A stretch of 64,000 bases of DNA from positions 124,001 through 188,000 of the forward strand of contig JBEWZL010000030.1 of the NCBI GenBank assembly GCA_045837725.1, written 5' to 3'. The position numbers were made by a program, and so were the translations under genes. Positions 15,850 to 61,063 of this stretch are shown here, in pieces; within the stretch, counting starts at the first letter, position 1; every line of letters begins with the position of its first letter. The DNA is from Vermamoeba vermiformis (taxonomy: Eukaryota). The notes under the pieces were generated by a model, which saw only the letters and a list, made by a program, of their open reading frames with translations, did not search any database and was not told the DNA's origin.

Positions 15850-18293
15850 TTAATGGTAATCCTCGTAGGGCATGAAATAGATGTTCAGCACGCCACGGTG
15901 TACTTCGATCGCCGTTCTTACGCCTTCGCCAAGCATTTCTCCATCCAGATCAACAATTCCTTTCTTCTTGCCGATCGGCTCCATAATTAATGCACGGACC
16001 TTGTCGTGATTGGCATAATCATCGTGCAGGTATTCTCCTGTTTCAAAGTCACCTGCAAAAGCGCCAAGAATTTTCATTTTCTCTGACCAGTTCAACGTGT
16101 AGATCAGATCCAAGCTACCGTCAGAAAAGTGTGCGTAGGGAGCAGGGCACATATCACCACTATTGTATATTAGACCTCGGTGTGATAATTTCTATTAAAG
16201 TATTACCTTGCGTGGGCGATATTCATGGCACCAAAGTAAGCGACATGTCCGCTGATCGCGTACCAAGGCTGTGGCAGATCTAACTTCTCGAGAACATCAG
16301 AAGGTAAATGAATGAAATTTCCCTTCTTTTCCTTCTTTGTAGCGGTTTCTTCGATGTACTGTGTGCGAATACGATTCAATCGGTCGAGATAATAGTCCGG
16401 ATCAATGTTGATCTGCGTCTGCAAGCCAGGAGCGAGACCGAGCACTTTGAACGGACCTGACTCTTGTTCTACTGGCTCCACGGACTCTTTTCTCTCTTCC
16501 ACCACGGTTGTTGTTATTATTGTTGACTTCAATATCAACTTCCTCAACTGTTTTGACTTCAGTCACGCCTTCACTGTCCTCGACACGGCAGTAAGTGCAG
16601 CGCGTGGCATGTAAACATCGCGGGAATGAGTCTGATTTGACCTTAGTCTTGTCCAACACTCTACCATTGCGATACTCGTCAAATGTTACGTTGGGCAGTG
16701 CGATCATATTCACTTCGTACTGTCGCAAGTCGAGAATGCGAATCAGACCACCGAGGATCAATCTGACACGCGAGTCAGTTGGGTTATATAGTGGCAATTT
16801 CGAGCATCAGAAGTACTTACCGAGCATCACCCATCCATCTCCATCGCTCACTTTCAATGTCAACTGGCGCACGTGTCAATACGAATACAGTGAATGGTTA
16901 GTGATACGTACCATCGGCCATCAGACCCCACAACAGGCCCATGAAGCCGTAACGCACCAACTTCCAGGGTTCATTCTGTGGCTCTATGTTATTGTTCTCA
17001 GGCTTATTTTCTTTCGTTTCAGCTTCAGTCGTGTTATTCTTGTTCTTCTGTTTTTTGTCTTCTTTTCCGTGTTTCCAAGTGATTTTGGAAGCCGGTTGGT
17101 AGAGCGCGATCAGATCCAACGGTCTGCTCTCACCTGTGGTTGTTAGATCAATTGAAACCATGCAACAAATGACGTACCTTTAATAATAGCCAACGCTGCA
17201 CGAATCGGATGCACGCCACCAACTTCAGCTGCCAGCGCATTGCCCGTGCCACCAGGGACTGTACCGACCTTGACGCGCTTGAGTACCTTGACAGCGTCCT
17301 CACGGCCCATCAAGCCGTTAATACACTCGTTCAGCAAGCCATCACCACTCACCGTGAAGACACCGTCAACATCGTCAAGTGACACCTGTCAACAAAGTGT
17401 CAACTACGCAAGTACGTCGATTTAACACTTACCTGTCGCACATCATCTTCACAGTGGCCTGCATATTGTGTGGCTACATTGATAGTGAGTAAAGAGGAAC
17501 TCAATATGCTTTAGCTGCACTTACTAACGATGGTCAATTTGTGGCCGGCTGCTTCGAACAGCGGACGAATCAAGTTGCACACTTTGGGCGCTTTTTTCTT
17601 TCCACCAAACGGATTGACGTAGCATCGGAATCGTTGTCCGCGCTCTACACGCAACGAGGTTAACACTGGTATACTTCAATGTTCCAGCCACTTACTTTGT
17701 CCTCGCTTCTCGAGTTCACCATTGATTTTGTTCATCCAAGCTGTGGCTGTGGCTGTGTCTTTGCAGGTGAATTTGAAATTGAGAATTTTGAATTCGGGTT
17801 GTTTTGGGATCTTGATAAGTTTCTTGTTGGGCGGCGTTGATTTTTTGAGTGGCAGTGCTTCGATGTGTCCGCAGCGTACAATAAATATTGACGACAAATC
17901 TACCGCTGATTTTTTGTCCTCTTTGTCCTTGACTGGTGGCGGGGCTGTGTTCTGATTCGTGTTCTGTTCGAGAGTATCATCGTCGGGGTTGTGTCGTGCG
18001 TGCGCAATCGGATCTGAAGCGAGAAATGCACCAGCAACATAATGCCATGGTACTAAGTATCCTTTTTTGCTTGCATACAGATCTACAGTTGGCCTGTCAA
18101 AGATCGCGGGATCAGCCAAAAATAAATGAAAATAAGCTTTGATTAATCGCATAATAATCGTGCGATTGCAGTTATTCGTTTTATTAAAATAAGTATGAGG
18201 GTGAATTAAAAAAAAAGAGAATCAATTAAATGTGATATTATAAAGCAGCTTCTAATATTATTTATTGCTTACCCTCGAGTCAACAAATGCCAT
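15850..18293 (-). CDS. Sphingosine kinase / DAGK catalytic-domain lipid kinase
   Basis: NPFGGKK, SGDGLLNECINGL, PGGTGNALA, FSDGSLDL and VDLDGE motifs. Short first exon MAFVDSR at 18293. Confidence 0.88.
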
Positions 18294-18540
18294 TGCAATC
18301 CCTCGGCCAATAAATTTAATGCCACCTGTTTGTTCAAATAAGTTGGCGGATCCAAGACAACGGATTCAGCCTCGGGGCTAAGTTGAACAAGCTTTTCTTC
18401 GGCACTCATTGTAATGGAGTCTGAGTTGTTGATATACTATCCGCTGTTTCTCGATCTGTTCAGGCTGAAAAAAAAAACAGACTCGGAAAATTGCTTCATA
18501 AGCCTTGGCTCCAAATTTCATCATATCATTTTGTCGTCGC

Positions 18541-20442
18541 ATGGCCTCACTGTACAAGCCGCTTGCTAGGAGTTTTTCAGTGTTAGGTAGCCGAATAAGC
18601 AAGGCAGGCCTTCTCAACAAAAAATTATTCTATTCTACGCGCAAGATGAGCAACACTCCGGTCAAAGTAAGGGTGCTCATATTATTTAATAACTATATTC
18701 TTACTCCCGTCGTTATATAGTTTGATGCAAGCGCCGCTGAGGCTGATCGTGTCAGACCTTTCGCTCAAACCGTGTGGCATGGTAAATACGCTATTAATAA
18801 TTATAAAAATTACTACACTACTTGTGGATACAAAATATAAGGGTTGCGTGCGATATTGAGAATTGTTTACTGATTTTCATACCACAGAGTTTTCTCCTTT
18901 GGCTTTGAAATACAACGCATGCAATCTTGGACAAGGTATGAAATAGAAGAAATTCACGAGTATCTTGAATCAATCAAATAACCATTTTCAGGTTTTCCTA
19001 ACTGGAATCCACCTGCGTTTATTACCAAAGCCGCACACGACGCTCACGATGAAATCACTACAGGTAGTATTAATACATATATCAGAGATACGATTATGGA
19101 TCTAATCATATCATGCGTGTAGTGCCCGGTGGCAAGTTGAATCAATATGCCCGCAGTGCTGGTCACATGCGCTTAGTGAATGCCATTGCCAAGATGTACT
19201 CACCACTGTTGGGACAACAACTCAACGGCGCGACTGACGTCTGCGTGTCAGCTGGTGCCTCGGAGGGTACGTCATTAACAAATATTTGACAGGTGTATTG
19301 AACTAACCGGCGTCAATTAGCTATCTTCTTGGTGGTCTCGGCCTTTGTGAACCCTGGTGATGAAGTGAGTACTGTGATAGGTGCTGTAAAGGCATGACAT
19401 TAATCCTGTGAATCTCGAAGGTAATTTTGCTCGAGCCGTTCTTTGACATTTATCTCGGTGCTATTACACTGTGCGGTGGTGTGCCCCGTTATGTCTCGTT
19501 GAAGCCTCCTAAGGACGTGACTGGCGAACACAACTCATCGGACTGGACCCTCGATGAGAACGAACTGCGACAAGCGATGACTGACAAGACGAAGTTGATC
19601 ATTCTCAACACTCCTCACAATCCTCTTGGCAAAGTTTACAGCAAATCTGAACTCGAAATGATCTCGCGTGTTGTTATGGTAAGCAACATGTGCCTGTAGT
19701 TAGTTGATCTGGACTGACAGGTGTCAATTATCAGGAACATCCGCGCTGCATCATGTTGAGCGATGAGGTCTATGAATGGCTCACTTTTGACGGCACTAAG
19801 CACGAGCGTATTGCCACAGTACCGGGCATGTGGGAGCGCACAGTGACCGTCTCATCCGCTAGCAAGACCTTCTCGATCACTGGCTGGAAGATTGGTTGGA
19901 CTGTTGGTCCCGCGAACTTGATCTCAGCCATCATGAAAGTGCAGGCCTTTGTCTGCTTCAGCATTGCCACTCCGCTGCAAGAGGCTGTGGCTGTTGCACT
20001 CGAGCAGTCGATGACCTCCAATTACTTCAACGAATTCCGTGCCGATTACCAACGCAGACGAGACTTCTTATTGCAAACTCTGCGCGACAGTGGTCTCGAG
20101 CCTATTGTGCCTCAAGGCTCGTTCTTTATTCTCGTGGATATCGGCAAAGTAAAACTGCCCGAAGGAGCAGGCACTGAGAAGACTATCACGGGTCAAAATA
20201 TGCACTTGAAGGACTGGAACTTCTGCCGCTGGCTCACCACTGAGATGGGTGTCGCAGCTATTCCTGTCTCGGCATTCTACAGGTGCGTATTGTACACGCC
20301 TCGATTTACGAACTAACTTGACATTCACAGCGAGGAGCACATGCCCAACAATGTCATTCGTCTTGCTTTCTGCAAAACCGATGATATTTTGAACAGAGCT
20401 CGCGAGAACTTGCTCAAGTTGAAGGATTTAATCCAAAAATAG
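18541..20442 (+). CDS. Kynurenine/glutamine aminotransferase (class I/II PLP), with probable mitochondrial presequence
   Basis: NLGQGFPNW, LNTPHNPLGKV, SDEVYEWL and SASKTFSITGWKIGW (PLP lysine). Arg/Ser/Leu-rich N-terminal 35 aa without acidic residues. Confidence 0.92.
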
Positions 20443-22736: not shown

Positions 22737-22760
22737 CAATATGTATTGAGCGCAGTTCCA

Positions 22761-23761: not shown

Positions 23762-26700
23762 TTAGTTGTGATCACTGAGGGAGTTGGATCTGGAAGAGAC
23801 ACTCAAGTTCGGATTGGACATTGGTGAGAGCAGCGGTGAGGCTTGAGGATTGGGACTGTGGCCACCAGTCTCTTTGTCCTTACTGGGCTCAGGTTCAGAC
23901 GAGTCGAGATCAGCCCACAAACAAATAGTGCGGTCCACAGAGCCTGACCACACAATGTTCATGTCACGTCCTTCTTGCTTCTCGCTCAGCACTGCCATGC
24001 CCAGCACTGCGTCGTTGTGTTCGAAGCAGAGCTCGTTGAGCATTTCACCAGTCTTCGTGCTCCAAATGATGAGTGACTTGTCGTCTGAGCACGACCACAC
24101 ATTGTTGCCAACGGCTTGCAGCAAGTTCACTGGATCGCTGTGCCCTTGCATGGTACGCACTTGATCGCATCGTACCTGCTGAGAATTGTTAGCACAACGG
24201 TCAGAGATTCGAATACTTATAGCTACTCACCCCGACACTCCAGACAATGATGTTGGAGTCACTTGATGCAGTCCACACTTGATCACCGACGACTAACATG
24301 CTAGTAATGATGCCTTGATGGGCCTCGAAGATGTCGACAAACTTGAATTTGTTGGTGATGCGCACGAGAATGCGATCAGAGCCAAGCCAGATCTGACCTT
24401 GCTCTTTCAACTCGACGATAGAGTTGACCGAGTGCAGCACGATCTCTTTGGGCAATTTGATCTCTTTCTTCAACTTGCACTTCTTGGCATTGTACAAGCG
24501 CAGTCTGCCGAAAGAAGTGCCTGCGAGAATGTGCTTGTTTGTGGACAACAAGGTGAGGGACAAGACCTCTTCGCCGTCAGCACTCTTCCAGAACGATTCT
24601 TTGTCCTTGTTCTGAGTGTGCCGTGTCAATAATTGAGCATAGAACACACACAACATGGCGATACTTACGGTAACGTTCCACACGGCCAAGGAGCCATCGG
24701 CTGCGGCAGACCAAACATGAGTGCCGGTGCAGATCATTAAGTGCACGCGATTGGAGTGAGCCCTGAAGACAAGTAGTTAGTAGGACACTAGTAAAGCAAT
24801 TGCACCAGTAACATACTTGAATGACTTGTTGAATGTACCACGAGAGCTCCACACGGAGATTGAGCCATTAGTAGCTCCGACCCACACTTCAGCTTCGCCA
24901 TTAGGTAGCGGCACTTTGACTAGCGATGTAATGCCAGCATCAAGATTGAGCTCAGTGTCCAATCGACCCAAGAACTGCGAAGAGCTGCGCGTGTCAACAT
25001 CAGTACTTTCGCGCACAGGAGCTACAAGCTGCAATATTGGCTCGCTCTTCTCGCGGTCGGTAATGGGGGCAGGGGGCAAGAGCACTTCAGGGAAGTATTT
25101 GTCGCGAATGTCACGCAGTCTCTTGTAGACTTGCTCGAATGTAGGACGTTTGGTGCTGTCACCGACCCAACAGTCCTTGACCACTTGAATGTACTCGGGG
25201 ACGCGTTGATATTCAGGGCCTTCAGGGATTGGTGGACGATGGCCAGCAATGATCTTCTCTTCAATGTCACTCAAGAACTTGAAGTCACCAAAGTACTGTT
25301 GACGGGTCAGCAGCTCGTACAAGATGACACCAAATGAGTAGACGTCTGCTTTTTCAGTGTACTCTTCTTCGCGCAGCACTTCGGGTGCTAACCAAACTGG
25401 ATTGTCGACTTCACGACCAGCGAGTGTTGGTGCCAAACCCGAAAGACCAAAGTCTGTAACCTTGGCGACGATTGGTGCATTTTCACGCTCCTCGTTCGAT
25501 TTGTGAATCAACAGAACGTTTGGAGACTTCAAGTCGCGGTGAATGATTGGCGGGTGCGAGCTGTGCAAGAACTCGAGACCAGCTGCCATGTCGAGTGCGA
25601 TCTTGATGCGCAGAGGCCAAGAGATTTCGTTGACTTTGCTTGAAATGTCATTGCCGTCACTGCCTTCACGGACATCGTGAATGAACTCGTAGAGATTTCC
25701 ACCAGCCAAGTACTCAGTGACGACACAGAGCGGGTCCATGACAAGACCCTTGAGCTGCACAATGCAGGGGTGACTCAATGTGCTCATAATCCAGACCTCG
25801 CGACGGAACTCGGCGAAAGCTTTGGAAAGCGTGTCTTCATCGAGTGACATGCCAATCATGTCTTCAGCCTTGATGCGCAACTTCTTCACGGCCACGTGAT
25901 TGGTGTTCCATTTGCCGCGGAACACAACTGCAGCACCACCTTCACCAATCTTCTCGGCAAGTTCGATTTCAGAGAATTCAATCTTCTTGCCCTCAAAGTA
26001 GGTCATCGACAGGTCAGGTACCAAGTTCTCGATACGGATTGGACGCACGGCGTGACAGTACACGAATGACCCCTTCATGGCAGCTTCTTCGCACTGTTCT
26101 TTCGGGAAGTAGAAGGGATTGAACGTCTTCTCGCGCATGCAATGAATGCACGGCACTTGCACATTGACGTTGATCTTGAAGATGCGAATCAAGGTCTCAA
26201 TGGTGGCAATGACGTCGCGGTACAAGTTGACTTCACCTGCAGCACGCACAGTCACATCGAGCACTTTGATGTGCGGGAACACTTCAACGAGCATTGCTTC
26301 GCGCTTGTCTGGCGTTTGAATCAAAATACCATTGCGCCAGTAGATGTTGGTTTCGCAGAAGTGCAACAAGCGCACCATGAGACGCGAGAAGAAGCCTTGA
26401 GGAATGAAAGAGAAGCTGAATCGACGGCCATATTGCGGACCATCAATGAAGCGGGGCCACAATGTATCCAACTCCACGGGACGCTTTTCAGGCAACAAAG
26501 CAGGGATCAAGCTTTGACCGTCCTTGTAGAAGTCAGGTTCTTGCGAGCTGTTGCCGCCTTGTTCGCTCAACTTCTTGCGATAGCGCGCTGCTGTCAAGTT
26601 GAACGAAATTTCAAACTTCTCGAACAGCGCGACAAACTGCTTGTGCAAGTACTCGGGGAACTCTGGCGGCCTCCAGATTTGCTTCAAGTGAATGTGATAG

Positions 26701-33878: not shown

Positions 33879-35960
33879 ATGAGCACTACCACAGAACAAG
33901 CAGGATTGAACAATTCGAGTGCTCAAGTAGCAAATAAAGAGGCTAATGCGGCTACTGAGGGCCAAGATCTCTGGCGCCAGCTGTTAACTGATTCGACCAC
34001 TACAAGGGATGCAATCGCGCAAAAACATTTATCGCTGTTAGGTATGCATATTTATTGTCCATTATGTCTATTTGTAGTCGATAACAATAGTCATTAATTT
34101 AAATTGTAATTTTTAAAAAAATGTAATTTACCAAATATCTTCGATTAAATAACAATACTGACAATACTAAACATTAATAATTATTGTGTTATAATAGGCA
34201 CCAATAACAGCGGCAAATCCTCCTTGCTCGCCAAATTGCAAGGTTTAGATGAAACAGAAAGGACAAAACCAGTGGCCCTCGATTACAATTATATTGACGT
34301 ATTCGCCGATGAAGTTGATGGTGCGTGCATGAATATGAATTTATAATTAAGTGCTTGGCTATTGAATATTGACTCGTTTTGTTGCGAAATTTAACCGTTC
34401 TTAGCCGTAATGTTCATAATTATAAGACGAATTAATGCAAGTCTGTCAATGCTAAGTATGATCTGTTATTAGACGATCCTATCACGCGCATTCACGTGTG
34501 GCAAGCTGAAGGTGATCCAGAGCGATTAGATCTGCTCAAATTCGGTCTCAACGAAGAGAATGTCGATCACGCAGCAGTGTTGATATGTCTCGACTACTCC
34601 TCGCCCTGGACACTGCATCAACAGCTCACGCAATGGCTCGGCGTTGTCAAGCAACACATTGCCTCGCTCAACCTGCCTGAAGATCGACTTGAACTCGCTA
34701 AAAAACGAGGTAATACGGCTGACTGATTATGCAACGCATTGCATACGATACACGTTGTGTTTTGACATCTGTCACACCAATGTTGTGCGAGTGACATCTT
34801 GACTGACACTTTTGACACTTTACAGTGGCGCTGCAGTTTCAACAATACGCCGAACAAGGCGAGGGCAAGAAGAAAGGCCCCGTGCGCACTGATGTGGTGA
34901 GTAGAGCTGTTGAACTGTCGGTAGTGGTGGTGGTACTAATCGTCATTAGCCGCTACAACCTCTGCCTGAAGGTGTGTTGACGCACAACCTCGGCGTGCCA
35001 GTGGTCGTCGTGTGCACGAAGAGCGATGCCGTGGAGAGCTTGGAGAAAGACTACGGCTACAAAGACAGTCACTTTGAGTTCATTCAACAACACCTGCGCC
35101 GCACTTGTTTGCAATGTGAGTGCGACACATGTCTTCAATAGCACTAGTATTAACAGACACACAGACGGTGCTAGTTTGATATATTCATCGATCCGCAAAG
35201 AAATCAACGTGGATCTGTTGCTGCAGTACTTGCAATATCTCTTGTTTGGCATGGAGTTCAATCACAATCCACAGCTCATTCAGCGCGATGCAATTTTTGT
35301 GCCTGCTGGCTGGGACTCGCTTAACAAAATTGAGGTATGAAGTGTTAATATACTGATACTAGACTTGTCATAGTTCTAACTCTGAAGCAGATTGACTTTA
35401 AAAATCAAAAGTTGACCACCAATCCAAACGAAGAGTTTGAAAAGATTATCACAGTGCCCCTCGCACACAACCCAATCGAATCAGCGCGTGACACGAGTGT
35501 GTTAATCACGTGCGATGAAGATCAACAGTTTTTACAGCGCAATCTGGACTACATCGAGAAAGAAGACGCGGGCTTGAAGGGCTCAGGCGGCGCTAAGAAA
35601 CCAGTTGGTGATCTGTTTGACTCGCTCAAGAAGTTTGGTGGCATTTTGAACCAATCCACGGTAAGAATGATTGTTTTTAATTGTGGAAGTGACATTTCTG
35701 ATCTGTCTCCGCAGCCACAAACTGGCGCGAGTGAAGAGACCCCTGCCCCAAGTGAACAACCAGCTGCTGCACCACAACACGCGCGTCGAGAAAGTGACGC
35801 GTCAGCGAAGAACGAGCACGCAGTTCTGGCGAGCTTCTTCAACAGTCTGATCAACAAAAAGAAACCCGATGCCAAGTCCGCTGAAACACGATCTAATGCT
35901 GAGCAAGAGCTATCTAAACTCACGCGTCCTCGTGGTCAGTCCAAGACGACACAACAGTAA
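33879..35960 (+). CDS. Cytoplasmic dynein 1 light intermediate chain
   Basis: DLWRQLL, P-loop [55 protein letters not shown] and C-terminal helix [10 protein letters not shown]. Confidence 0.93.
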
Positions 35961-36061: not shown

Positions 36062-37512
36062 TTATTTTACAATGCACTGCTCAGTGAATGATTTGACGAG
36101 CTTGTCACGATCGAGATTGACACCTGTCATCGCCCAGCGGTTGACACGCGGCACATCACCCCAGGGCAAGGAGGTAGGCCGCACATCGAGTGCTGAGTGC
36201 ACTGCTTGCGCGAGACAAGGTGACTCGTGACCCTTGACTGCGAGCCTGGCCTTAGCACGCCAGACAGTGCCATTGGTGGACTGCTCGTCCTGCGCCCAGG
36301 ACCACTCACCGAGCCATGCTGCAACGACCTCTTCGCTGATCACCTCGCCAGGCACTTCAAAAGCTACTGCATTGACTTCGCGAGCTGTGTGCGACTCGTG
36401 TTTGTGGTCGTGATGATGCTCTTCAGCCTCCAACGCTTTGGCGAGTTGTGGATCTACTTCAGTCAGCCTAGCACACCGTTAGCCATGGATACTAGTGCAC
36501 CGGCACAACTACATACCGATCAAAGCTGAATGCCCCCACACTGGTGATGAGCTCTAGTGGCACTCGCGACCTCACTGACTCTAATACCGTCGCTGCAGGG
36601 TTGATGTCAGCGATGGTCTCTCTGAGGCGCGCAATATCTTCGCGCGTCAACAAATCACACTGCAAGCACGTCAGTTAATTGTGCAATGCAGTCACTCTCT
36701 CACCTTATTCAACAGCACTCTGTCTGCGAAGGCTATTTGTCTGCGCGCTTCAAAGCCTGCCTCACTCGTCAGCTCACGCTCAAAGTTCTTGCCGTCGACC
36801 ACTGTCTGACACGTGTCAATCCGAGTGCACCACTAGTCAGTACTTACAATAATGCTGTCGAGATAGATGTCACTCTCTAACTCGTCGTCAAGCCACAATG
36901 AAGCTGCAAGTGGTCCTGGATCTGATGACGGGCTTAGCCACGAAGACCTATTTAAATAAGCGACGCACCTGCTAGTCCTGTAGTCTCTATAAACACGTGC
37001 TCAAACTTCTCTTTGCTTTGCACTAACTTTTCAAGCGCTTGAACGAGTTCGGTACTGTTGTATTGATTAATAACAAGACACGCCCTTGCAATGCTTAAGC
37101 AAGCTAGCTATGAAATTTCGTACCGCACAGTACAACACACGCAACCTGTCCCAGTACATTAGCAACACGCACAATTATTGCATATCGTGCGTACCATTAG
37201 GGAGTTCCATCCACTCAGGTCCTGTCTCGCCCTTCTTTTCAAACAAAAATTTTCCTTCGCCGACAGCTGTCGATCCAACAATTGGTATCATATATCACAA
37301 TAATAATACGTCTTACTCTCTCCAAATTCGTTCAAAATTATCGCATATTTTTTCCCGTGATTTTCTGTGATCAAGTAATTGAGGAAAGTCGTCTGTCAAG
37401 TGGATCTGTCAATTCTACGCTAGTACAAAAGGCTGCGATTTATCATTACCTTGCCGGCACCAAGAAATCCAGTGAGCAATGTCACAGGTACTCGTTTGTT
37501 GTTGTCTTCCAT
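36062..37512 (-). CDS. COG0523/CobW family GTPase (ZNG1/CBWD-like zinc chaperone)
   Basis: VPVTLLTGFLGAGK, WMELPNGCVCCTVR (CxCC), ETTGLA/DPGP, His-rich HHHDHKHESH and a CobW_C-like end. Confidence 0.92.
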
Positions 37513-43480: not shown

Positions 43481-46400
43481 ATGGATTCACGGCTAGACAG
43501 GCTTTTTAGCTTGTTGGATTGTATCCTTTAATTATTGCAATTTTTCGCCTGATTTTTAATGGCGGTATTTTTGTTTTGGCAGAGATCAAGAATAATTAAC
43601 TTTTCAGATTGGCAAAAAGTGGTAAATTACTGCCTGGCGTCTGATTACATTTATGCATAATAATCTATTTACTAAAATTACCAATAACACCCCTTAACTC
43701 TCGATCGAAGCCGGTACAACAGCGGTAACCAGAAAAGCAGCAGCACAACAAATAGGAGAAATTCAAAAGTATCACCCGTACACGCTGTACAATCTCTTAG
43801 AACGGGTACGTAACGCGCTTGTGGTGCTGCAGTGCTTAGGACTGACAATTGACAGGCGCGTATCTTCTTGCACAACAAAAACTGGGACACACGTGCAGCG
43901 GCAGGCGAGGCTATTGAATGCATTGCCAACAATGTGCCGCTGTGGCGTCCATCGACTGAAGGTGAGTGCACGCGTACGAGTAGTGCCGAGGAGTGCTAAT
44001 CAATGCGTGTGACAGCAAGTGCCATGAAAGAGGCCGAGAAGAAAGAAGAGGGCGAAGAACAGAGTCTGTTCAACTTTGCAGACTTTGATATTGAGAAGGT
44101 GATGAAGCGCGGGGCTGTGCTCGTGGCCTCTGGTGGACAGGTGCGTGCAGTGTGACACCTGTCGTGGCACTCACTGACATGTTGGCAACAGGAATTCGAT
44201 GACGACGAGGCAGTGGATGACAAGACACGACTGGCCAATCAGCGCAAGCAATTGAAACAAAAGTTGGGCTTCACAGCACAGTTCAGCGAAGACGGACTGG
44301 TGGAGGACGATGATCTGATCGCCATGAAGAGCAAAGAGGAGATCGATCGACAGCGCCGCGAAGAAGAAGAGGCCAAGCGCAAGGCAGAGGAGATGCAGGC
44401 AGAGATGCAGCTCAAGGGACTGAGTGCTCGACAGCGCATTCAGGCCAAGAGAAAGCTGCGTCAGTCGGGCAAGGGTGAGCCAGATCCCAGTCGCAAGAAA
44501 CAGAAGACTGAAGACACGAGTGGTACGTGCGCAGGTGTGTGACTAGCAGCGGTGTACTGACGCGCGTGCAGACAAGAAGAAGCTGAAGACCGTAGTGACC
44601 GCACAGCCCTCCACGAGTGACAAGGTGGTGGTCGAGTCCGTGGTGGACACTGAGCGCACCTTTGACGATGAGAGCGAGTGGCCTCTGGAACGCTTCTGTG
44701 CCGAGCTGTTTGTGGACCTGTTCGAGTACGTACGCGGTGTGTGCCGTACATTTGACACTAACTTCTCGTGCAGCACGCGGTGGGAGGTCAGACACGGTGC
44801 TGCGATTGGTCTGCGCAGTGTGTTGAAGCGACACATCAATTCAGCGGGCAGACGAGGTACGTGAGACTAATGGCCATTGATAGGACTAATGTCTCGTCGC
44901 AGCGGAGACCAATCTCGAGGATCAGATGCGCGATCACTTGAAGTGGCGCGAGGATGCCACCATTCGCTGCTTGTGCGTGCTGGCACTGGATCGATTCAAC
45001 GACTTTTTGACGGACCGTGCGGTGGCACCAGTGCGCGAGACAGTCGCGCAAGTGCTGGCCATGCTGCTGCGGCACGTGGAGAAAGAAGAGAAGACGGAGA
45101 TCAAGTACGAGACCAAAGTGAAGCACGAGGAGAGCGGCGAGCACATGTGGACCGACAAACAGGTCTACGGGCCTGTCGTCCAGCTCGTGCAGAACACACT
45201 CCAATCGCTCTACGTGCTCACTAACCGCGCCACGTGGGAGGAGCGATTGAGTGGCTTCTTGGGCATCAAGTACTTGATGGCAACGCGCCACGACCTCGTG
45301 CACGAATTGTTGCCACTCGTGCTGCCTGCTGTCATTCAGGGGTGAGTGTTTGCAACTATTTACCGCGACAGTATTGTGCTGACACGTGTCACCAGCATTC
45401 AGGACAAAGAGGACGATGTGCGCATGGTGGCAGCAGAGGCCCTCGTGCCACTGATCAGCACCATCAGCGATCGATCGAGTGACGCAGAGATCAGTGCGCT
45501 GCTCGCCATTCTCTGGAACACCTTGCTCGATCTCGACGACTTGACTGCCTCCACCAGCAGTGTCATGACGCTGTTAGGTAACACTGTCCCTATCACACTC
45601 GCACCCCTCACTCACTCACTCTTCGTGCAGCGGAGTTCTATTCCATACCGCGTGTAGCCGCCATGCAGCCCGCGCAGCTCGGCACGCTCGATCAGCTGGT
45701 GCCACGACTGTGGCCCTTCTTCCGACACAACGTGCAGTCCGTGCGCAAGTGTGCGCTGCAGACCCTGGACAAGCTGCTGTCACTCAATCAAGAGGCGTGG
45801 AGTACCTGGGTGCCGCAGCTGTTGAGCGAGACACTGCAGATCTTGTATCAGAATGTGCTGCTGGAGCCGAGCGAGGACTTGGTGCGTGACTCGCAGCAGG
45901 TGTGGCAGAGGATACTCGAGCGCATTGATCCGCAGCTCGGTGTCAGTGCCACGCACGCACTGCTCGGCACGTGGTTCAAGCTGTTGTGCACACCCCGTGG
46001 CGTGCCGTTTGATCGCAGTGTCATGTTGATTGTCGAGCACCCCTCGCACAAGCAGCACAACGGCGCGGGGACCAATCAGAACAGCGCACAGCCCTCGCAA
46101 CAGGCGGGTGTGATTGACAACATCGAGGCCAGCACTGCTATTCGTGTAGCTGCAGCGAGGACCATGGCACACCTGATGAAGCTCTACTGTCACACCGAGG
46201 TAAGGCGACACTAGTGCCATATAAATGAGTACTCATCTTGGTGCAGCACGCGCCTGTGTACATCAATGTGGTGCTCGAACAGCTCAAAGCCAATGCCGCG
46301 AGCAAGCGACTGAGTTTGGCGATATTGATCGCTGAGTGGACGCAGCTCGTCACTGAGACCGCACGTGATCAGTTCCCTGCCACTGTGCGCGATCAGCTGC

Positions 46401-50966: not shown

Positions 50967-52659
50967 CTATTGTTGAGTGTCGGGGTTGCCTTGCGGTTGT
51001 TGGTTGATCAAGTTTTGCACATCCGGATTCTGCGCGAGATTTTGGGCACTAAATATAGCAGCACATCAGACACACAGCACAAGGGACCACTGCACCGAGC
51101 AGTACTTACATGTTCATGATCTGCGGATTGTTCATCATCTGTTGCATCATCATGTTCATCATGCCCGGATCGTTCATCATCTGCATCATTTGCGGGTTGT
51201 TCATCATTTGCTGAATGGCGGGATTGTTCAGCAGCCCTGCGAGACCACCGCCACCGCCCTGACCGAGATTCTGCGCAAAGTTCTGAAAGGCGTTTTGGAA
51301 GCCAGGGTTGTTGAACATGGCCCCGAGGTCTGGCATGCCACCAGCAGCAGGATTGGCCCCTCCCATATTAGGCATTGCTGGCATACCTCCCATGCTTCCC
51401 ATATTTGGCATGGGGCTGACATTTTGCTGTCAAAGGTGTCAGTACATGTCTCAGCGGTGACAAATTGACAGGTGTCATTACCAGCTCTCGGATCTTCGCT
51501 TCAGCAGCACTCAGCGACTCTTTCACGGCAGTGTTGCTCGGCTCAATCTCCAGCGCCTTCTTGTAGCCCTGCTCCACGGCCTCTTTGTACTTGCCCAGCG
51601 AGAAGTAGGCCAAGCTGCGCACAACACCGATGAGTGACTGAGTCGTGACAGGTGTGACATGTGACACGTACCCGAGTCTGCTGTAGGCCTTGACGTAGAG
51701 CGGATCAATCTTGATGGCCTGTTTGCAGTCCTCAATGGCCTTGACGTGCTGGCCAATGTGACTGTACGCCGCAGCTCTGTTCGAGTAGTAGATCGCATTC
51801 GTGTTGTTCAGCGCGATGGCCTGGCTGTAGCTGGCAATGGCCTCTTGATATTTCTTGTTGGCCAATCGCTCGTTGCCTGTCAGCGTCGTGTCAGTGCACC
51901 GAATGACACCTGTCAGTGCGTGACTCACCTTCAACTTTGTGTTGTTCCGCTAATTTCAAGCGCTCTTCATCTGACAGCGCAGGTGTCGTGTTGACAGGTG
52001 TTGCTGTCGCTGTGTTGACAGGTGTCACACTCTGACTCGCATTTTCTTGTGGATTTTCCTGTGCATAACGCGCTGCAAATCGCTTCTTGGCATTCTCGAC
52101 GCGCTCCTGATATGCAGGTGTGTTCTCTTCGACGCCGTTGAAATAACCACGTGATCGAATGAGCTCTAAATAGGCACGGAATTTTTCTTCGAGATTGGGA
52201 TCTGATCGGATCCACATTAACACTATTCAATAACTGGCTAATTAACTTACCATTAAATCCGTACTCTTGTCTCTTAGGTGCAGGTACTTGCGGTGCTTGT
52301 TCAGCCTTATTCTTTAAAACAAATTGCAAATTAGAATAATTACAAATATATTTCCATAGTCATGGTACTGCACGTACTAAGTGGCCAATCGCCTGCTCTA
52401 ATTGTTCTTTGCGTGCCAAGCCAAGACCAAAAATATTCGTCAGCGACATGGGTTTAATAGAGTACTTCTGAACGTGCTCGGGATTCGCCAACGACAGACC
52501 GCTAACATGGCTCAACAAGTCCTCTGCGATAGAGATATTGTCGACTTGAAAGCCTAATTGCAGGGCCAGATCACCCTCGCCGAGTGAATGCAAGTACTCG
52601 ACAATCGCAAACAAGAGGCGCTTGTGTGTTTCAACGTCCGCGGGTTGATTGTTCTCCAT
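50967..52659 (-). CDS. SGTA: SGTA/Sgt2 TPR co-chaperone
   Basis: N-terminal KRLLFAIVEYL; TPRs AEQHKVEGNE...YYSNRAAAYS...YVKAYSRLG; C-terminal M/N/Q-rich STI1-like region. Confidence 0.88.
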
Positions 52660-52850: not shown

Positions 52851-53569
52851 ATGGAGAACAATGATTATTTCAGGACTTATCGCCTGTTAATTGAATAGTA
52901 AGCGAGTGTTCAACGGCTAGATGGATGAGTAATTAAGTGCCAGCTTATTAATTGATTGAACAGCAAGCAACTCTTGCAGGCACCGATTGACGGTACATAT
53001 ATATTGCCCTCTATACATCCCACGCATGGTAAGTGCTGTGCTCATTCAGCAGCCACATCTCACATCTGCGCAGTGCTGCACGGTGTGCTCTCAGTGCGCG
53101 AGGGACTCTATCAGGGCCTGCACAGCTTCACTGTCACCTTGCCACCGCTCTATCCTGCACATGAGCCGCAGCTCTCCCTGGCCTGTGCAGTGCCACATCC
53201 GCTGATTGGCAGCGATGGTCGTGTCAGCACTACGAGTCAATGCACTTCACTGCGCGCATGTTTAGAGCATCTGCAGCACATTATGCACGTGACTGATCTC
53301 GCGGCACTCTGTCGCACTAGTCTCGCGCCGATTGTTAATCCAGCAGCGCACGACTTGTAAGACACATCCGGCTCTAATGCACTCTATTAACTGATCTTGC
53401 ATCTAGATGGCTCCACAATAAGATCAAATTCCGAGAACAACTCGCGCTCGCACTGCACTCTGCTTCTCTACACCTGCAACAAGCGGATCTGACTCTGTTT
53501 CATCCTGCCAGTGCCCCCGTCTCAGATGATACGTTAGCGCAGTTTCGACGTGATCTGCTCGCTATGTAA
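52851..53569 (+). CDS. AKTIP/FTS-like UBC-variant protein
   Basis: YRLLIEYKQLLQAPIDGTYILPS...LHGVLSVREGLYQG...FTVTLPPLYP...HPLIGSDG resembles AKTIP. 4 exons. Confidence 0.7.
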
Positions 53570-53731
53570 TATACCACCACGCACCATGTACATACCAAGT
53601 CCTATTTATGTTGATAAAAGCATTAAAATTTAACGCGTTGTGATTTGAATCATATTCGCGTGCCAGTTGGTATTGAATAGCACGAGAGGCACTGTTAGTA
53701 ACTTGAATGCTCTGCTAGTCGTATTGTCATT

Positions 53732-56700
53732 ATGAGCAGTCCTGAAGATCACGAGACCCACCACGACGAAGAAGGTGAATATTACAATCCGCCAGATCCA
53801 GTGCTGCGTGTTGCGCGTCGATTGTACGGTCGATTACTCAAAAGCGGCGAAGTCATACGCGAAGAGGGCTTTGTATCGCGCACTAGTCTCATGAAGCACT
53901 TGCATCAGCTCGGCGTGGTAGGGAATTGAAACAGATCGGCTTTACAAACTTTCGTGTTTTTTAAATTATAAGAATAGTTTACTGCGACTAATAGGAAAAC
54001 ATTTTGATATCAGTTGTAATTATCAATGCGTGTTTAATTCTTTTAAAATAGAAAATTTCCAAAGAAGAGTTGGATGCAGCGATAGCGAGTCAGAGTGTTG
54101 AAGAAGAAGAGCCGGGAGGACGTGTCGACATTGAAGAATTTCAGCAGCGATGTGTACCATTGCTATGCGAGCTCGATAAGAATGTTTCAGAACCAGATTC
54201 ACCGAGCCCACATCCCGCGTCACCTCAAGTCCAAACACCCGCACAAATGGACGCTAATCCCGAGGTACATGTATACACATTGCACGTATTAACAGTACTA
54301 ATCGCACCACAGCTGCGCACACTCGCTCAGTTGATGACTGCAGTCGGGATCGAAGGAGCGCACGAGAACAGTCCCGAAGTGGCAGCAGTGGCACGTGCAC
54401 TGCGCGATCTGACCAGCCCTAAAAATAGAAGTCCATTCCGTCCTCTGCCGCCACGTCTCGCGCAAGTGCTGAATGGTCACAGCGACAGCGAGCACGTGAT
54501 TGAAGACCACGTGACCGAGTCGAGCGATCACGTGCTGGAGAGTGACAGCGAGCACGACGTGAATGCGCTCAAAGACAAGTTGAAGCGCGTCAAAGACGAG
54601 AATCACGTGCTCACCCTCGTAAGTGCGCGGTACTTGCCTGATGTAGCCCCACTCACCGATCGATCGCGCAGAAAGTGAACATGCTGGAGAGTCGCGTGAG
54701 TCAACAGGAGCAGCAGCACGACGAGGTGGTGCGTCAACAGCGCGAGAGCAGCGAGGAGATTGAGCGACTGAAGAAAGTGAGCAAGCACAAGCAAGAGCTC
54801 GAGCACGACAAGCACCTCTTGATCGAACAGGTCGAGGCCCTCAAAGCGGAGCTGTTGAGCAGCAGCGAGGTGATCAAAGAGCTCAAGCGCAAGGAGGGCG
54901 AGTGGAGCACTGAGAAGGATGACATGCGCAGTGAGTAGCGGTGTGCTGGCACTCTGCCACATGAGGTACTAACGCGTTAGTTGTGCCCCCAGACGACATC
55001 TTCACCAAGATGAAGGAGTTGAATGACATGCAGGACGAGCTCACGCAGCTGCGGCAACACGCCAGCAAGAGTCAAGAGCTCACGCAGCACAATCAGTCGC
55101 AGCTCAAGGTACGTCATATACTCATGCATACCTGGCACTTCGACACTCACCAAGTCACGTGACAGTCGCTGGAGCAGGAGCAGCGTCAAGAGATTGAACG
55201 ACTGACACAAGAGCGCGATGAACTCGCCCTCAAGCTGAGTGTGCTGAGCGACGAGAAGCGCGAGATGGAAGTGCACGTGGAGGAGATGACGCGTCAATTG
55301 GAACACGTCAAACTCGATCTCAAGCACCTGCAGGAAGAGTATCCTAAATAGACCTGTGTTGGGCACTCATTTATCCCCCATATTAAAATCTCTGTAATTA
55401 ATTTCCTTAACGCTCTTGTCTCATTAGAAAGTTAATGACGAGCAGCACCATGTCTGACAGCGTGAGTATACTTTGTTGTACCATTCATCACGTGACACCG
55501 ATTGACATGTCCCACGACAGGTGTCACTGCAAGCAGAGCTGAAGATGGAAGAAGAGAAGAGCACACTGCGCGCACAACTCGCGGAGCGTGAGAGTGAATT
55601 GACCGCGCTCAAACAACAGCTCAGCGCACTCGACACGACCACGCAACAACTCCACGCACTGCAGCAACAGCACCACTCGCTGCTCGCTGCACACGAGTCA
55701 CTGCAACAGAGTCGCGCGCAGGATGAGAGTGCACGCGTCACTGAGCTGAGCGCTGAAGTGGCGCGCTTGAGCACGGAGCTGCAGAGCTTGCAGACACGCA
55801 GCCAGGCCCGCGAAGGGGAGCTGAGTGCGCAATTGACACTGCGCGAGCAGAGCTTGCAAGAACAGCTCACTGCACGCACTGACGAACTCGCACGTGCTAA
55901 CGAAGAGTTGACACGTGTCAAAGAGAGTGTTGCACAGCTCGCGCAAACACGTGCTGAGCTCACGAGTGCCCAAGAAGAGTTGCAATCACTGCGCGATCAG
56001 CTGCGTGCGAGCGAAGACAAGGCGCGTGAATCGAGTGCACAGTCCGCACGTGAGTTGGAACAGTTGCGCGCGTCACTGGCCGACAAAGAGCGCCAGTTGA
56101 GCGAGCAGAACAGTGTGCTCAGTGCGCGCGATCACAGCATTGAAGAGCTGCAGCGTGCACTCGAACAGCAGCGCGCTCTGCAGGCAGGCGAGCACGACAG
56201 CGTGGTGACTGAGCTGCGTGCTGCTAACAGTGTCCTGCAACAGAAGATTGACGAGCTGACACAGCGCGCGAGTGATCAGACGCGTGTTATTGATGAACTG
56301 ACAGCGAACAACAAGTCATTGAATGACTCACAGTCTGCGCATGGCAAGCACGTGGATGAATTGAACGCACAGCTCAGCGAGACACGTGCGCAGTTAGAGC
56401 AGTTCAAATCAGACAACACTGCACTCACTCAACAGTTGGAGCAGTTCAAATCAGACAACAGCACCTTGCAGCACACCATTGAATCGCTGCGTCAGAGTGC
56501 GAGTGAACAGAGCCGTGCAGTGGATGAGCTGACGCAGACCAGTGCCGCACACCTCCAGACCATTGCAGAGCTGACGCAGAGCAAGACTGAACTGCACGCC
56601 AGTCTCACAGAACTGCAACAGCGTCAACTCACTGCCTCGCAACAGAGTGCTGAGACGAGCAGCGATCAGGAGCGCGCGATGACTGAACTGCGTGCCCGCG

Positions 56701-57563
56701 CTGAGGAACAGGAGCGTGTGATCAGCGAACTGCGACACACACTGAACGAGCAGACCAGTCTCGTGCAGGACAAGGACAAGATCATTCACGGTCAGAACAA
56801 GGAGATCAGCGCTAAGGACGAGGTGATCAGTGAGCTGCGTGCAGGCATGGATGAGCAGAGCCAGAGCATGGCAGACAAGGACAAGATCATTCACGGTCAG
56901 AACAAGGAGATCAGTGCCAAGGACGAGGTGATCAGTGCACGCAATGCTGTGATTGAAGAGCACGAGCGTGCGATCAGTGAGCTGCGCAGTCGTGTGAGTG
57001 AGCTGCAGTCCTCTGTCGTGCCCACCACCCCCGTGCCCACCACCCCCGTGCCCAGTGTCTCCAGTGCAGAGCTCGAGGCCCAGCACCAATCAGCCCTCGC
57101 ACTGCTCACCAGCGAACACAACGCACAGCTCGCACAGCTGCGTCAGAGTGCCGCACAAGAGTCGCAACAGCTGCGCACTGAGCGCGATGATCTGTTGCGC
57201 CAAGTGCAGGTGGAGAGCAGTGCGCACAACGAGACGCGTCGCACCGTGCAGCAGTTGAGCGAGGAGTTGAAGGGCCTGCAACAGCGCATCAAGAGTGCTG
57301 CCCTCAGCGAGGAGAGTGAGGAGCGGGCCATGCTCGCTCAAGCCCTCAAAGAAGAGCGCGATCGTGCGCGCGAGTTGGAGAGTGAACTGAAGCGGATGCG
57401 TGATCAGCGCGTGCAGGGTCGCGAACTGGACGACATTGAGCCGCGGAGACGACAACGCGACTTGACTGATGAGCGCGAGGCACTGCTGCAGCCGATTGAA
57501 GACTCGTCGAACACGTGTGCTCCTTGTTGCGCACCGAAAAACTCGGGGTGCAATGTCATGTAG
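53732..57563 (+). CDS. Long coiled-coil protein with C-terminal CaaX box
   Basis: Extensive E/Q/L heptads, ending CAPCCAPKNSGCNVM*. Exons join in frame. Confidence 0.8.
55339..55427 (+). other. U12-type GT-AG intron in the coiled-coil gene
   Basis: 5' splice site GTATCCTAA; branch TTTCCTTAAC ending 16 nt before the 3' end. Removal keeps the frame (QEE-KLMTSS). Confidence 0.82.
56769..56937 (+). repeat. Near-identical 64-bp direct repeat with 105-bp period in coding sequence
   Basis: DKDKIIHGQNKEISAKDEVIS is encoded at both 56769 and 56874. Confidence 0.9.
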
Positions 57564-57813
57564 CGGATGTACTTACGGGCGAGTGGATGTGTATAAAAGT
57601 GCAATTTTGTGTAGGTGTTTGTTTAATAACGAACTCGGTCATCTCGGGGCAGCTGATGCGTAGTACAAGTATGATTAGTATTACACGCGATCGGTCTCCC
57701 AGGGTCGCTTTATCAGGTCGTCTGATGAAATTTCCGTTCACTGAACGATCATTATCAGGCATTCAATAGATCTGAACACCACAACTGCTTAATACTATCA
57801 ACACTCAGTATTG

Positions 57814-58967
57814 ATGGCGAAACAGGTGCTGGATGCAGTTGACAGACTGGTATATTTAGATCAGCAATTCGTGCCCATGAATGCAGCGCACATATCCATA
57901 TTCGACTACGGCTTTAACTACGGCATGGGTGTGTATGATGTGGCGCGTGTAGAGCAAGGTAAATGGAACTAGTGGCCGTGAGCGCAAATTAACATCGACG
58001 CCCAGGACGGATCTATCAGCTCGAAGAACACATAGCGCGCCTTTTGACGAATGCTAGTAAATTGAATATGACGCCTGTCGAGAGTGCGGAACAGTTGATG
58101 CAGATCTCGCAGCGACTAGTGCTCGAGACAGTCGGACCTCACGCGCCCACCACTCCTGCTGCCATCGTGTACTATCAGATATCGCTTGGACATTACGGTA
58201 CGCGATGGGGTGTATATATATATATATTATATGCCGCTATGAGCACTCACGCGTCGACTAGGACGGCGCAGTCACCGCTATCCCGACACACTGACAGCGC
58301 GCACACTCATCTACACGCAACGCCTCACACCGCTCAGCGACACAGTCTATCGCACTGGACTGCGCGTGACACTGGTAACACGTGACTGCCGTGCTGGTGC
58401 GTGTTTGACACATTTGACAGGTGTCAGATGATCGCTGGGACCACTGCGACATGAAAACCACAGCGCTGTGCTCGAATGTGATGCACTTCAACACGTGTCT
58501 CGCGGAGGGATTTGATGTAAGGATCGCTCCATCTCTTGCCTAATTTAGTAACCAAATTATTGCAGGACTTCATCTACGTGAACATGAGCAGCGATCACGT
58601 GCTCGAATTGTCCTCGAGTAATCTGTTCATTGTCACCGCCAATCACGCACTCCGCACACCACCGCTCGGAAATCACGTGCTGCCAGGCATCACCCGCGCC
58701 ACGTTGCTAAAAATAGCCGCAGGTGCCGGGTACAGTGTCGAAGAGGCCGACATTAGCCGCACTGATCTGCTCTCAGCGCGCGAAGTGTTTGCCACAGCGA
58801 CGACGAAAGAGATCGTGCCAGTGCGCGCTGTTGGCGAGCAGTGTTTGACACCTGTCCCGGGACCTGTCACGCGTCAGTTGATGCTGTTGCTCGCACAGCA
58901 CTTGGAACACGCACTCGGCATCACTCATCCTCGCCGCACTCTGCTCGACGAGTTGAACCTGAGCTAA
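57814..58967 (+). CDS. D-amino-acid transaminase (fold IV PLP, bacterial Dat-like), intron-containing
   Basis: DYGFNYGMGVYDV, EHIARL, YYQISLG, RSHRYP, DDRWDHCDMKT, ELSSSN, LPGITR, ATTKEIVPV. Confidence 0.85.
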
Positions 58968-59132
58968 GTTGCACTTGCCTAATTTGTACTGGTGTACTAA
59001 TGTAAAATTTCTGTCGAATTTTGGCAACATTTCTGCCTGATTTGTTGGCCAAAAAAACTTTTCGTGCAATAATGTCTATCAATCTTTCTTTATCGTCCGC
59101 AGAATAGCCACACTTAATAGTATCTTGACCGA

Positions 59133-61063
59133 ATGGACAACACTCCTACGTAAGTTCTGCTAGTTACGACAGGCGGTATAATCGAAGTTCCCTTGTGATT
59201 TAATACTCCATGCAATAGGGAGTCACTGATTGATGTTCTCAATCCGCCACGCGATTCGCTGACTGTAACTGACAATAGAACTGGTCAGCAATACTGCATC
59301 CCGATCAGAAACAATGCGGTGATGGCGGTAGATGTCAAAAAAATTAAACAAGGCAGTGAAGACCCTGGCTTACTGTAAGTAGCGTCCAAATTTCCAACAA
59401 TTATTTCCAAAATAATTATCTTATGCTATTGCAATTAGGGTTTACGATCCAGGTTATATGAACACTGCGTGCTGCACGTCGTCTATCTGCGAGATTGACG
59501 GTGATAAGGGAATGCTTACGTATCGAGGCTACGATATTGAGGAATTAGTTGAGAAGTCGAGTTTTCTCGAGGTTGCTTTCTTGCTCATCTACGGTCGATT
59601 GCCAGAGCGCGAGACATTACAAGCGTGGGAGACTAAGGTTATGCGACATACATTCATACACGAGAACTTGGTGCAGCTGATGAAGAATTTCCGTTACGAT
59701 GCACATCCGATGGGCATGCTCATCAGCTCTGTTTCTGCCATGGCGACGTTCTACCCCGAGGCCAATCCAGCCCTGCAAGTAGGTTACTGCGAGTACTAGA
59801 CATTGCAACTAATACTGTGGCATTATTATTAGGGTCCCAATATCTACAAAGACGCACAAATGCGCAACAAACAAATATTCCGCATTCTCGGAAAGATTCC
59901 GACCATTGCAGCGTGTGCGTACCGACATCGCATTGGTCGTCCTTACAACAATCCAGTGAACGAGTAAGTCAGAGTTTGACAGGTGTCATTCAATCGACTG
60001 ACAGGACCCTCGCAGCCTGAGCTACACAGAGAACTTCTTGTACATGTTGGACAGACTGAGCGAGACTGATTACCGACCACACCCCGTGCTCGTCAAGAGG
60101 TAAGAGTCCAGCTGGCAATGTGCCACCTCTAACTCAATGACAGTTTAGAAAAGATGTGGATACTTCACGCCGAACACGAGCTCAACTGCAGCACTGCCAC
60201 CATGCGTCAATTGAGCTCCACACTGGTAGACCCCTACACTGCAGTGGCTGGTGCTGCTGCGGCGCTGTACGGTCCGCTGCACGGTGGAGCCAATGAAGCA
60301 GTGTTGCGCATGTTGGAGCAGATTGGAGATGTGAAGAACATCCCCGCATTCATTGACGAGGTCAAAGCCAAGAAGCGCAAGTTGTTCGGCTTTGGTCACC
60401 GCGTCTACAAGAACTACGACCCTCGCGCCACGATCATGAAGCAGATTGCACGCGACATCTTCGAGTTGCTGGGCACATCTCCGCTCTGGGAGATTGCACT
60501 GGTCCTCGAACAGACTGCTCTCAATGACGAGTACTTTGTGACGCGCAAGTTGTATCCCAATGTAGACTTTTATTCGGGCATTATTTACAATGCCATGGGC
60601 TTCCCGACTGACATGTTTCCTGGTACGTGGATGACACGTGTCACATGTTGCTGTTCACGAACTAACTTGTTGCCCGTCAGTCTTGTTCACCATCCCGCGA
60701 GTAGTAGGCTGGCTCGCACACTGGGTCGAGGGCCTGCAAGAAGAGACGCGTATCTTCCGTCCACGTCAGATCTACCTCGGTGACTGTGGTCTGCCCTTCA
60801 TGGATATTAATCAGCGACAACCCATCAACAAACAGGATGAGCTGCGCAGTTCTGCTTCAGCAATGGCTCGTCGTCGTCAAGTGAGCTCAGATGATCGTCG
60901 CGCACTGGTCAGTTCGCAGTCGAGTGTACCGGCCGTGGAACAACACACTGCGCAGTCTGCTCCCTCGCATGGCACCAGCGACACACTCGCGGACAACAAA
61001 CGTAGCAGCTCGTATTATCTGCCAAAGACCATCAAGTTTGGTGTGGGCAATTCGGACAAATAA
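59133..61063 (+). CDS. Citrate synthase (bacterial/glyoxysomal-type)
   Basis: [55 protein letters not shown] and YPNVDFYSG. Confidence 0.95.

Follow-up and report, generated by a model that had tools for sequence, protein, structure and literature searches.

The 12-bp palindrome TGACASSTGTCA occurs in 12 exact copies in a 64-kb stretch of the genome of the amoeba Vermamoeba vermiformis (contig JBEWZL010000030.1, positions 124,001 to 188,000), hereafter called the window, to which all results on the palindrome refer and in whose coordinates all positions are given. Within the window, the palindrome is a discrete, exact and strand-symmetric word, found in predicted gene bodies and mainly in introns and across their 3' splice sites. 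We tentatively interpret it, with a probability of roughly 0.4, as a double-stranded DNA recognition site whose reader would be symmetric, most likely a homodimeric protein.

The pattern search returned exactly those 12 copies that a preliminary description of this DNA had listed, and none beyond them (Table 1), which corresponds to a density of about 1 per 5 kb within the window. The two central positions are CC in three copies, GG in five and CG in four, and GC is found in none of them. Dinucleotide shuffles (n = 100) contained 0.07 copies on average and 1 at most, such that the observed number represents an approximately 170-fold excess, and Markov simulations trained on the window (200 per order) yielded means of 0.05 at order 3, 0.305 at order 5 and 0.765 at order 6, the highest count in any of them being 3. 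Low-order composition, which the preliminary description had named as a result that would speak against it, is thus rejected as an explanation by shuffles and Markov simulations alike. Gaps between neighbouring exact copies range from 112 to 16403 bp without a regular period. Clustering is mild, with 4 of the 11 gaps being shorter than 700 bp (gap test, P = 0.037), and 7 of the 12 copies are situated in the same gene as another exact copy.

Concerning symmetry and spacing, each 4-, 5- and 6-mer was compared with its reverse complement at spacings of 0-8 over the whole window. TGACA-N2-TGTCA is the top-ranked dyad of all 4-6-mers (13 copies versus 0.25 expected), the thirteenth copy being one with a TC centre at 34763, and the 10-bp core GACA-NN-TGTC is found 20 times versus 1.9 expected. 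The same arms at other spacings yield no copy at 0, 1, 3, 5 and 7, one at 4 and two at 6, and the everted order TGTCA-N-TGACA is absent from the window at every spacing tried. When 5-mer arms are compared at a spacing of 2 bp, TGACA reaches 13 copies and the runner-up 3. Symmetry extends to 14 bp in a single copy (55909). The flanking sequence differs among all 12 copies and exhibits no relatedness, which rules out a long repeat or a miniature inverted-repeat transposable element as their carrier. A general palindrome-making process was rejected as well: palindromes of 12 bases number 32 versus about 16 expected, yet no other arm is enriched, and the surplus consists of the four CG-centred copies and of TA runs. 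Read on the sense strand of the respective gene, the asymmetric centres are mixed (6 GG, 2 CC).

The window contains 12 copies without mismatch, 8 with one and 15 with two mismatches, whereas about 0.07, 1.0 and 11.8, respectively, are expected by chance (as derived from cumulative dinucleotide-shuffle means of 0.07, 1.09 and 12.91), so that the excess is carried mostly by the perfect copies. The one-mismatch copies start at 13996, 34763, 35976, 38471, 44153, 51646, 55515 and 58846. Ten variants with one or two mismatches had been described before; all of them are present, seven with one mismatch and three with two (19287, 29051 and 51992), but the one-mismatch copy at 35976 had been missed.

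Table 1. Exact copies of the 12-bp palindrome and two one-mismatch copies in the window (a slash within a sequence marks the splice site).
Positions	Match	Site	Gene	Evidence
17380..17391	exact, GG centre on sense (minus) strand	predicted 47-nt intron 17386-17432 (-); 3' splice site at palindrome centre, TGACAG/GTGTCA	diacylglycerol-kinase-like	open reading frame (ORF) and Pfam
19715..19726	exact	position 37 of predicted 56-nt intron 19679-19734 (+)	class I/II aminotransferase	frame and Pfam
34763..34774	one mismatch, TGACATCTGTCA	predicted 116-nt intron 34710-34825 (+)		
36118..36129	exact	coding, minus strand, reads M-T-G-V-N, 22 codons before stop	CobW_C-domain gene	
36807..36818	exact	ends 1 nt before 3' end of predicted 42-nt intron 36806-36847 (-)		
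45380..45391	exact	4 nt before 3' end of 54-nt intron 45342-45395 (+)	Mot1/BTAF1-like	
51466..51477	exact	position 5 of 55-nt intron 51427-51481 (-)	SGT-like TPR gene	joint in 3 of 4 RNA runs
51646..51657	one mismatch	57-nt intron 51615-51671 (-), with three TGTCAC words		RNA-confirmed intron
51904..51915	exact	position 14 of 52-nt intron 51877-51928 (-)	SGT-like	joint in 4 of 4 RNA runs
52016..52027	exact	coding exon, V-T-P-V-N, low-complexity linker	SGT-like	unbroken RNA contig 51928-52201
55909..55920	exact	coding, L-T-R-V-K	685-aa open frame	unbroken RNA contig 55521-56798
58415..58426	exact	3' splice site at centre, TGACAG/GTGTCA; intron most likely 58212-58420 (+), 209 nt		
59977..59988	exact	position 14 of 52-nt intron 59964-60015 (+)	citrate synthase	joint in 4 of 4 RNA runs
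60632..60643	exact	position 10 of 58-nt intron 60623-60680 (+)	citrate synthase	joint in 4 of 4 RNA runs

Seven of the exact copies are situated in introns, two lie across 3' splice sites and three belong to coding sequence. All 12 fall into predicted gene bodies; none is intergenic or otherwise outside the predicted transcribed regions, the gene map being approximate. For seven of these placements there is support from RNA contigs, and the remaining five were obtained from reading frames and Pfam domains. The resulting tally is the same as in the preliminary description, which had also placed the word in gene bodies and seen no copy in promoters; the intron ending at 58420 most likely measures 209 nt and is thus not short. 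The copies in introns and across 3' splice sites, 9 of the 12, occupy a compartment of about 9% (9.3%) of the sequence (P ~9e-8), and the non-genic DNA (about 17 kb) contains none, versus about 26 expected at the intron rate.

Compartment sizes and null expectations were taken from a purpose-built gene finder, into which RNA-supported and hand-curated introns were forced; it recovered at most 9 of the 16 RNA-supported introns, and its intron and coding totals are rough. The intron set comprises 58 introns (4.57 kb), of which 16 are RNA-supported, 5 curated and 37 predicted. As RNA evidence, contigs of four RNA runs (from four studies) were aligned to positions 44001-64000, with 15 of the 46 splice joints and 40 of the 183 letter differences to the window being listed. 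These contigs remove short GT..AG introns from the window genes.

Some of the sites exhibit a particular arrangement. In the diacylglycerol-kinase-like gene, the ORF 17143-17388 (-) opens directly after the in-frame TGA of the palindrome at 17380, and its DAGK_cat match begins at residue 3. Equally, the TGA of the copy at 58415 constitutes an in-frame stop directly before the downstream exon; a joint for the likely intron 58212-58420 is not among the 15 of the 46 RNA joints listed. This likely 209-nt intron starts with a (TA)n run, GTATATATATATATATTATATG (58212-58232). The left half of the copy at 19715, CTGACAG, is the sole good branch candidate of its intron, 8 nt upstream of the 3' end, and the intron 36806-36847 (-) terminates in TGACACGTGTCAG directly before the splice site. 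For the intron 45342-45395, an RNA contig with a loose end at 45341 resumes with the letters following 45395; the respective Mot1/BTAF1-like gene encodes DUF3535, SNF2 and Helicase_C domains. The CobW_C match of the gene with the copy at 36118 spans residues 60-132 of ORF 36062-36478.

TGACA is the branch and acceptor word of this organism. It occurs 34 times in the 58 introns, 25 times outside the palindromes, where TGTCA is found 13 times; CTGAC occurs 20 times versus 7 times for its complement GTCAG, and many introns end with TGACAC-N3-5-TGACAG directly before the splice site. Half-sites are therefore common in introns, but the palindrome itself remains unexplained by this word: half-sites placed independently predict 0.09 palindromes in introns, and an intron-trained Markov model of order 3 predicts 0.033, versus 9 seen. 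Consequently, splice-word density was rejected as an explanation on the basis of this partly predicted intron set, and so was the branch/acceptor consensus alone, the second result that the preliminary description had regarded as fatal to its view. The left half is a likely branch site or acceptor in five of the nine intronic copies, whereas the copies at 51466, 51904, 59977 and 60632 are situated near the 5' splice site and overlap neither a used branch nor a used acceptor.

Concerning the coding copies, the codon-shuffled null proposed earlier was run on the predicted coding sequence, in which two copies are found versus 0.035 expected (1000 synonymous-codon shuffles), such that the excess stands and codon usage is rejected as its cause; the third exonic copy (36118, CobW_C exon) belongs to a gene missed by the predictor. 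All three share the frame xTG ACA SSN GTC Axx, in which no TGA stop arises. Stable intron hairpins were not supported, the fold z-scores of the ten introns with the motif being ordinary (-2.35 to +1.09, mean about -0.1, one of ten below -2).

The two-fold symmetry, the fixed spacing, the edges at 12 bp, the mixed orientation of the centres and the presence in introns as well as in exons are in keeping with a symmetric dimer that recognizes double-stranded DNA. Such a dimer would contact two inverted TGACA half-sites, situated exactly 2 bp apart around an S-S centre. The best candidate for the reader would be a TALE-class homeodomain dimer of the MEIS/PKNOX/TGIF type; a symmetric E-box protein, similar to those of the basic helix-loop-helix (bHLH) class, comes second and is conceivable because every copy contains CASSTG. 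Selection inside transcribed regions may keep the sites exact, and short GC-richer introns may gather them, being free of coding constraint. As these introns already hold one half-site (TGACAC or TGACAG), only the second half would need to arise, and the coincidence of the left half with a branch or acceptor in five of nine intronic copies is what this idea of a free half-site predicts. Possible roles would be the marking of gene bodies or the slowing of RNA polymerase at weak short introns. The word, its exactness, symmetry, sharp edges and placement and its match to a known homeodomain dimer consensus are observed, whereas a bound protein, its identity and the effect of its binding are our inference.

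The TALE dimer site is also the nearest precedent in terms of sequence. The statement of the preliminary description that TGACA is a TALE half-site is accurate, as the consensus of human MEIS3 is TGACAGGTGTCA according to PMC5449588, and the GG/CC form of the palindrome (8 of the 12 copies) is identical to it in every letter, both sharing TGACA half-sites and a spacing of 2 bp. Amoebozoa are reported to possess TALE homeobox genes (PMC6219170). In plants, TGACAG(G/C)T is recognized by KNOX proteins. A search of the literature for a KNOX binding site written as TGACAGGT yielded no useful papers.

Several observations weigh against recognition by such a dimer. A location in promoters or intergenic enhancers of target genes, as in TALE sites, is not seen, none of the 12 copies being intergenic or in a promoter region; transcription-factor sites are usually located in promoters and degenerate, whereas exact copies dominate here. 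Four of the 12 copies possess a CG centre, unlike the MEIS3 consensus, and the GC centre, which is the optimum for TGIF, is absent from the copies. The enrichment in introns would be explained just as well, if not better, by splicing or by the origin of introns. Since non-genic DNA contains none of the approximately 26 copies expected, relaxed constraint alone is insufficient, and a need specific to gene bodies must be assumed. The four intronic copies near 5' splice sites, off any used branch or acceptor, are a further difficulty, and all support comes from a single window of 64 kb.

The concentration in introns could alternatively be due to a cis-element of the pre-mRNA, a reading that we regard as possible but rather doubtful. 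The left half would constitute the branch or acceptor word (UGACAC or UGACAG) and the right half its exact complement, and pairing of copies with each other or with a branch could mask or present splice signals, order the removal of introns or loop out exons. The significant accumulation in introns and across 3' splice sites (9 of 12) is consistent with this, as are the sense-strand preference of the intron word (CTGAC over GTCAG), the five of nine left halves that are likely branches or acceptors, and the grouping of copies in shared genes and short gaps; perfect two-fold symmetry, however, is needless for a single-stranded signal, and the adjacent halves are unable to fold together across a centre of 2 nt. 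Asymmetric centres of intronic copies are GG on the sense strand in five of six cases, but this 5:1 bias is not significant. Model folds exhibit copy-copy pairing with mean probabilities of 0.96 in the SGT-like gene, 0.91 in the CobW gene and 0.02 in the citrate synthase gene, although this pairing largely restates the complementarity of the 12-mer, and long-range pairs in such models are unreliable; the introns themselves fold no more stably than their shuffled versions. Furthermore, the place within the intron ranges from +5 to the very end, and three copies lie in coding exons, where a word resembling a branch or acceptor is a liability. Introns of Trichomonas and Giardia possess a fused branch-acceptor motif, ACTAACACACAG. 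It is similar to the situation found here in that an extended intron word joins branch and acceptor, TGACAC-N3-5-TGACAG before the splice site being recurrent in the window, but it is one-stranded and non-palindromic, and its distance to the acceptor is constant, whereas the 12-mer of the amoeba is symmetric and variably placed. A legacy of intron birth, with the palindrome either carried by a mobile or copied intron (introner-like or through reverse splicing) or representing its target or its joined ends, appears unlikely to us, even though one pair of introns speaks for it. The introns 51877-51928 and 59964-60015 belong to unrelated genes (SGT-like and citrate synthase), yet both measure 52 nt and contain the palindrome at +14, followed by TTC, and ACTGACA at an equal position; they align without gaps, with 37 of the 52 letters identical (by eye). 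Among the 903 pairs formed by 43 introns of 40-70 nt, this pair scores best (24); the second-best score is 12, and the top scores in 30 shuffled sets range from 4 to 12. It is a single pair, though, and its score drops into the null range once the 12 shared motif letters are disregarded; the remaining copies share no flanks and vary in position. An excess of exact over decayed copies is expected of young insertions, and in both RNA-supported genes the introns with the motif are the GC-richer 3' introns, the 5' introns being AT-rich. Neutral insertions should nevertheless persist between genes, where none is found instead of about 26, and the three in-frame exonic copies possess unrelated flanks. 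Introners, the intron families of transposon origin in Micromonas, Aureococcus and others, have copies that can be aligned from end to end and that exhibit terminal repeats and target duplications. Common to them and to the palindrome is the occurrence of short sequences in introns of many unrelated genes, including here one clearly similar pair of 52 nt; apart from this one outstanding pair of 903, however, only the 12-mer is shared, copies are also exonic, and neither target-site duplications nor terminal repeats were seen by eye in the ten introns with the motif. The architecture of the 52-nt introns had no match in public metagenome contigs, which says little, the collection apparently being without the organism (the best citrate synthase reaching 70% identity).

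That a DNA-modifying or recombination enzyme acts on the word instead of a regulator, in the style of the cyanobacterial palindrome HIP1, is improbable in our view. Being exact, symmetric and sharply bounded, the word resembles the site of an enzyme more than that of a typical factor, and the core contains GAC-N4-GTC as well as, in four copies, ACGT. Enzyme sites with 12 specified base pairs are unusual, though; confinement to gene bodies is left without explanation, and neither a methylase nor periodic spacing was seen in the window. For HIP1, the abstract of PMC5861425 states a range of 15- to 300-fold, which includes the excess of about 170-fold found here. To chance, a by-product of composition or an assembly artefact we attach practically no credence. 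Both TGACA and CACGTG are frequent in the window, but none of the 100 dinucleotide shuffles reaches 12 copies, the maximum of the 200 simulations at order 6 is 3, and the expectations from codon shuffles and from the intron-trained model are equally low (0.035 and 0.033), such that chance is already refuted within the window. Against an artefact, RNA contigs from four other studies hold both exonic copies in their range (52016 and 55909) and splice four of the introns with the motif exactly.

The nearest statistical precedent is HIP1 (GCGATCGC), the abstracts on which (PMC5861425, PMC4390886, PMC13756078) describe it as 15- to 300-fold over-represented and linked to two methylases. Both words are exact short palindromes in strong excess (in the window, 12 copies versus 0.07 in shuffles and 0.765 at Markov order 6), occur within genes and also in noncoding sequence, and are of unsettled function. 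Despite this similarity, there are differences: HIP1 has 8 bp, whereas the amoeba word has 12 bp and a variable centre; HIP1 is hosted by bacteria and can exceed one copy per gene, whereas the word described here, TGACASSTGTCA amidst amoebozoan gene content, is concentrated in spliceosomal introns of an amoebozoan nucleus at about 1 per 5 kb. By analogy, HIP1 is thus a likeness of statistics and not a matter of membership, and the precedent drawn in the preliminary description holds for the excess, but not for word and host. Its overall interpretation, a HIP1-like signal of gene bodies or a footprint of intron formation, is partly supported, namely in its statistical core and in the placement in predicted gene bodies, the chromatin, modification, recombination or intron-birth role that it named being conjectural. 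A eukaryotic counterpart of HIP1 in the full sense, i.e., an exact 12-bp palindrome selected throughout gene bodies, read by a TALE-type dimer or another symmetric factor and tied to the handling or birth of short introns, seems quite unlikely; it might act, e.g., in polymerase pausing at weak GC-rich introns or in marking introns copied between genes.

Exact iterated palindromes are a long-standing puzzle of cyanobacteria, and our literature searches found no iterated palindrome described in eukaryotic introns. None of the literature carrying the three exact 12-mers concerned amoebae or introns, and searches for introners in Amoebozoa or for highly iterated palindromes in eukaryote introns returned nothing relevant. 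Were the word recognized on DNA, it would constitute a gene-body signal that shares its letters with the splicing code, and would give an old homeodomain dimer site a new role. A function in RNA would make it a compact splicing element complementary to itself, and as a relic of intron spread it would be informative about the multiplication of introns. A word of 12 letters can be mutated, pulled down and counted, such that the question is directly testable.

By its gene content, the window reads as amoebozoan nuclear DNA. Its genes include a ROCO kinase, a BEACH protein and a Mot1-like SNF2 ATPase. The closest named relatives of the ROCO exon are from dictyostelids, with at most 45% identity, and scans of public sequence collections found no close relative. 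Against prokaryote genome contigs, the ROCO kinase exon matched only one cyanobacterial Roc homologue (27% identity), and the 5S rRNA gene had no exact match in them. The citrate synthase exon matched 80 loci in public metagenome contigs with 59-70% identity; uninterrupted matches and long contigs suggest that these loci are bacterial. The palindrome is missing from all 80, a negative control of little weight.

Further observations concern related words and the two kinds of introns. The E-box (CANNTG) of bHLH dimers is represented in each copy of the palindrome by CACGTG, CAGGTG or CACCTG, but conservation concerns the outer TGA...TCA rather than the centre. CACGTG is found 53 times in the window, versus about 14 expected from base composition, mostly outside the 12-mer and with varied flanks, and CAGCTG occurs 41 times, yet is the centre of none of the exact copies. 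CACGTGAC occurs 9 times. The 10-bp palindrome GTCACGTGAC is present once, at 55154 inside the intron 55109-55165, and a predicted 45-nt intron (13306-13350, +) holds the related palindrome ATGACAGCTCTGTCAT with 7-bp arms and a CT centre, which is the sole TGACA-N4-TGTCA of the window. Introns are of two kinds: AT-rich ones (20-37% GC) with a branch of the CTAAC type, and GC-richer ones (45-58% GC) with many TGACA and GTCAC words. In the SGT-like gene (51427-52377, -) and in the citrate synthase gene (59375-60680, +), AT-rich introns occupy the 5' part and GC-richer ones the 3' part.

The ROCO-family kinase gene (24777-30296, -) encodes a myotubularin-like phosphatase, leucine-rich repeats, Roc, COR-A/B and kinase domains and contains one uninterrupted open frame of 1103 codons, stop to stop; a protein 95% identical to that of the ROCO gene is present in a public assembly. 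A full-length 5S rRNA gene (8175-8293, +; Rfam RF00001, 104.7 bits) is situated in isolation among protein-coding genes, near the BEACH-domain gene. The gene at 62677-64000 (+) possesses three AT-rich introns and no palindrome copy, and its contig word depth amounts to 240-420 in three RNA runs and to 19 in the fourth, versus about 5-25 elsewhere. The RNA contigs of the four studies are 95-99% alike to the window, with 183 differences, and two of the runs lack 15 bases at 57017, within a proline/valine-rich repeat of the 685-aa frame. DNA sequencing runs that contain this stretch are available as well. The differences among the RNA contigs indicate that several strains or close species are represented in the public data.

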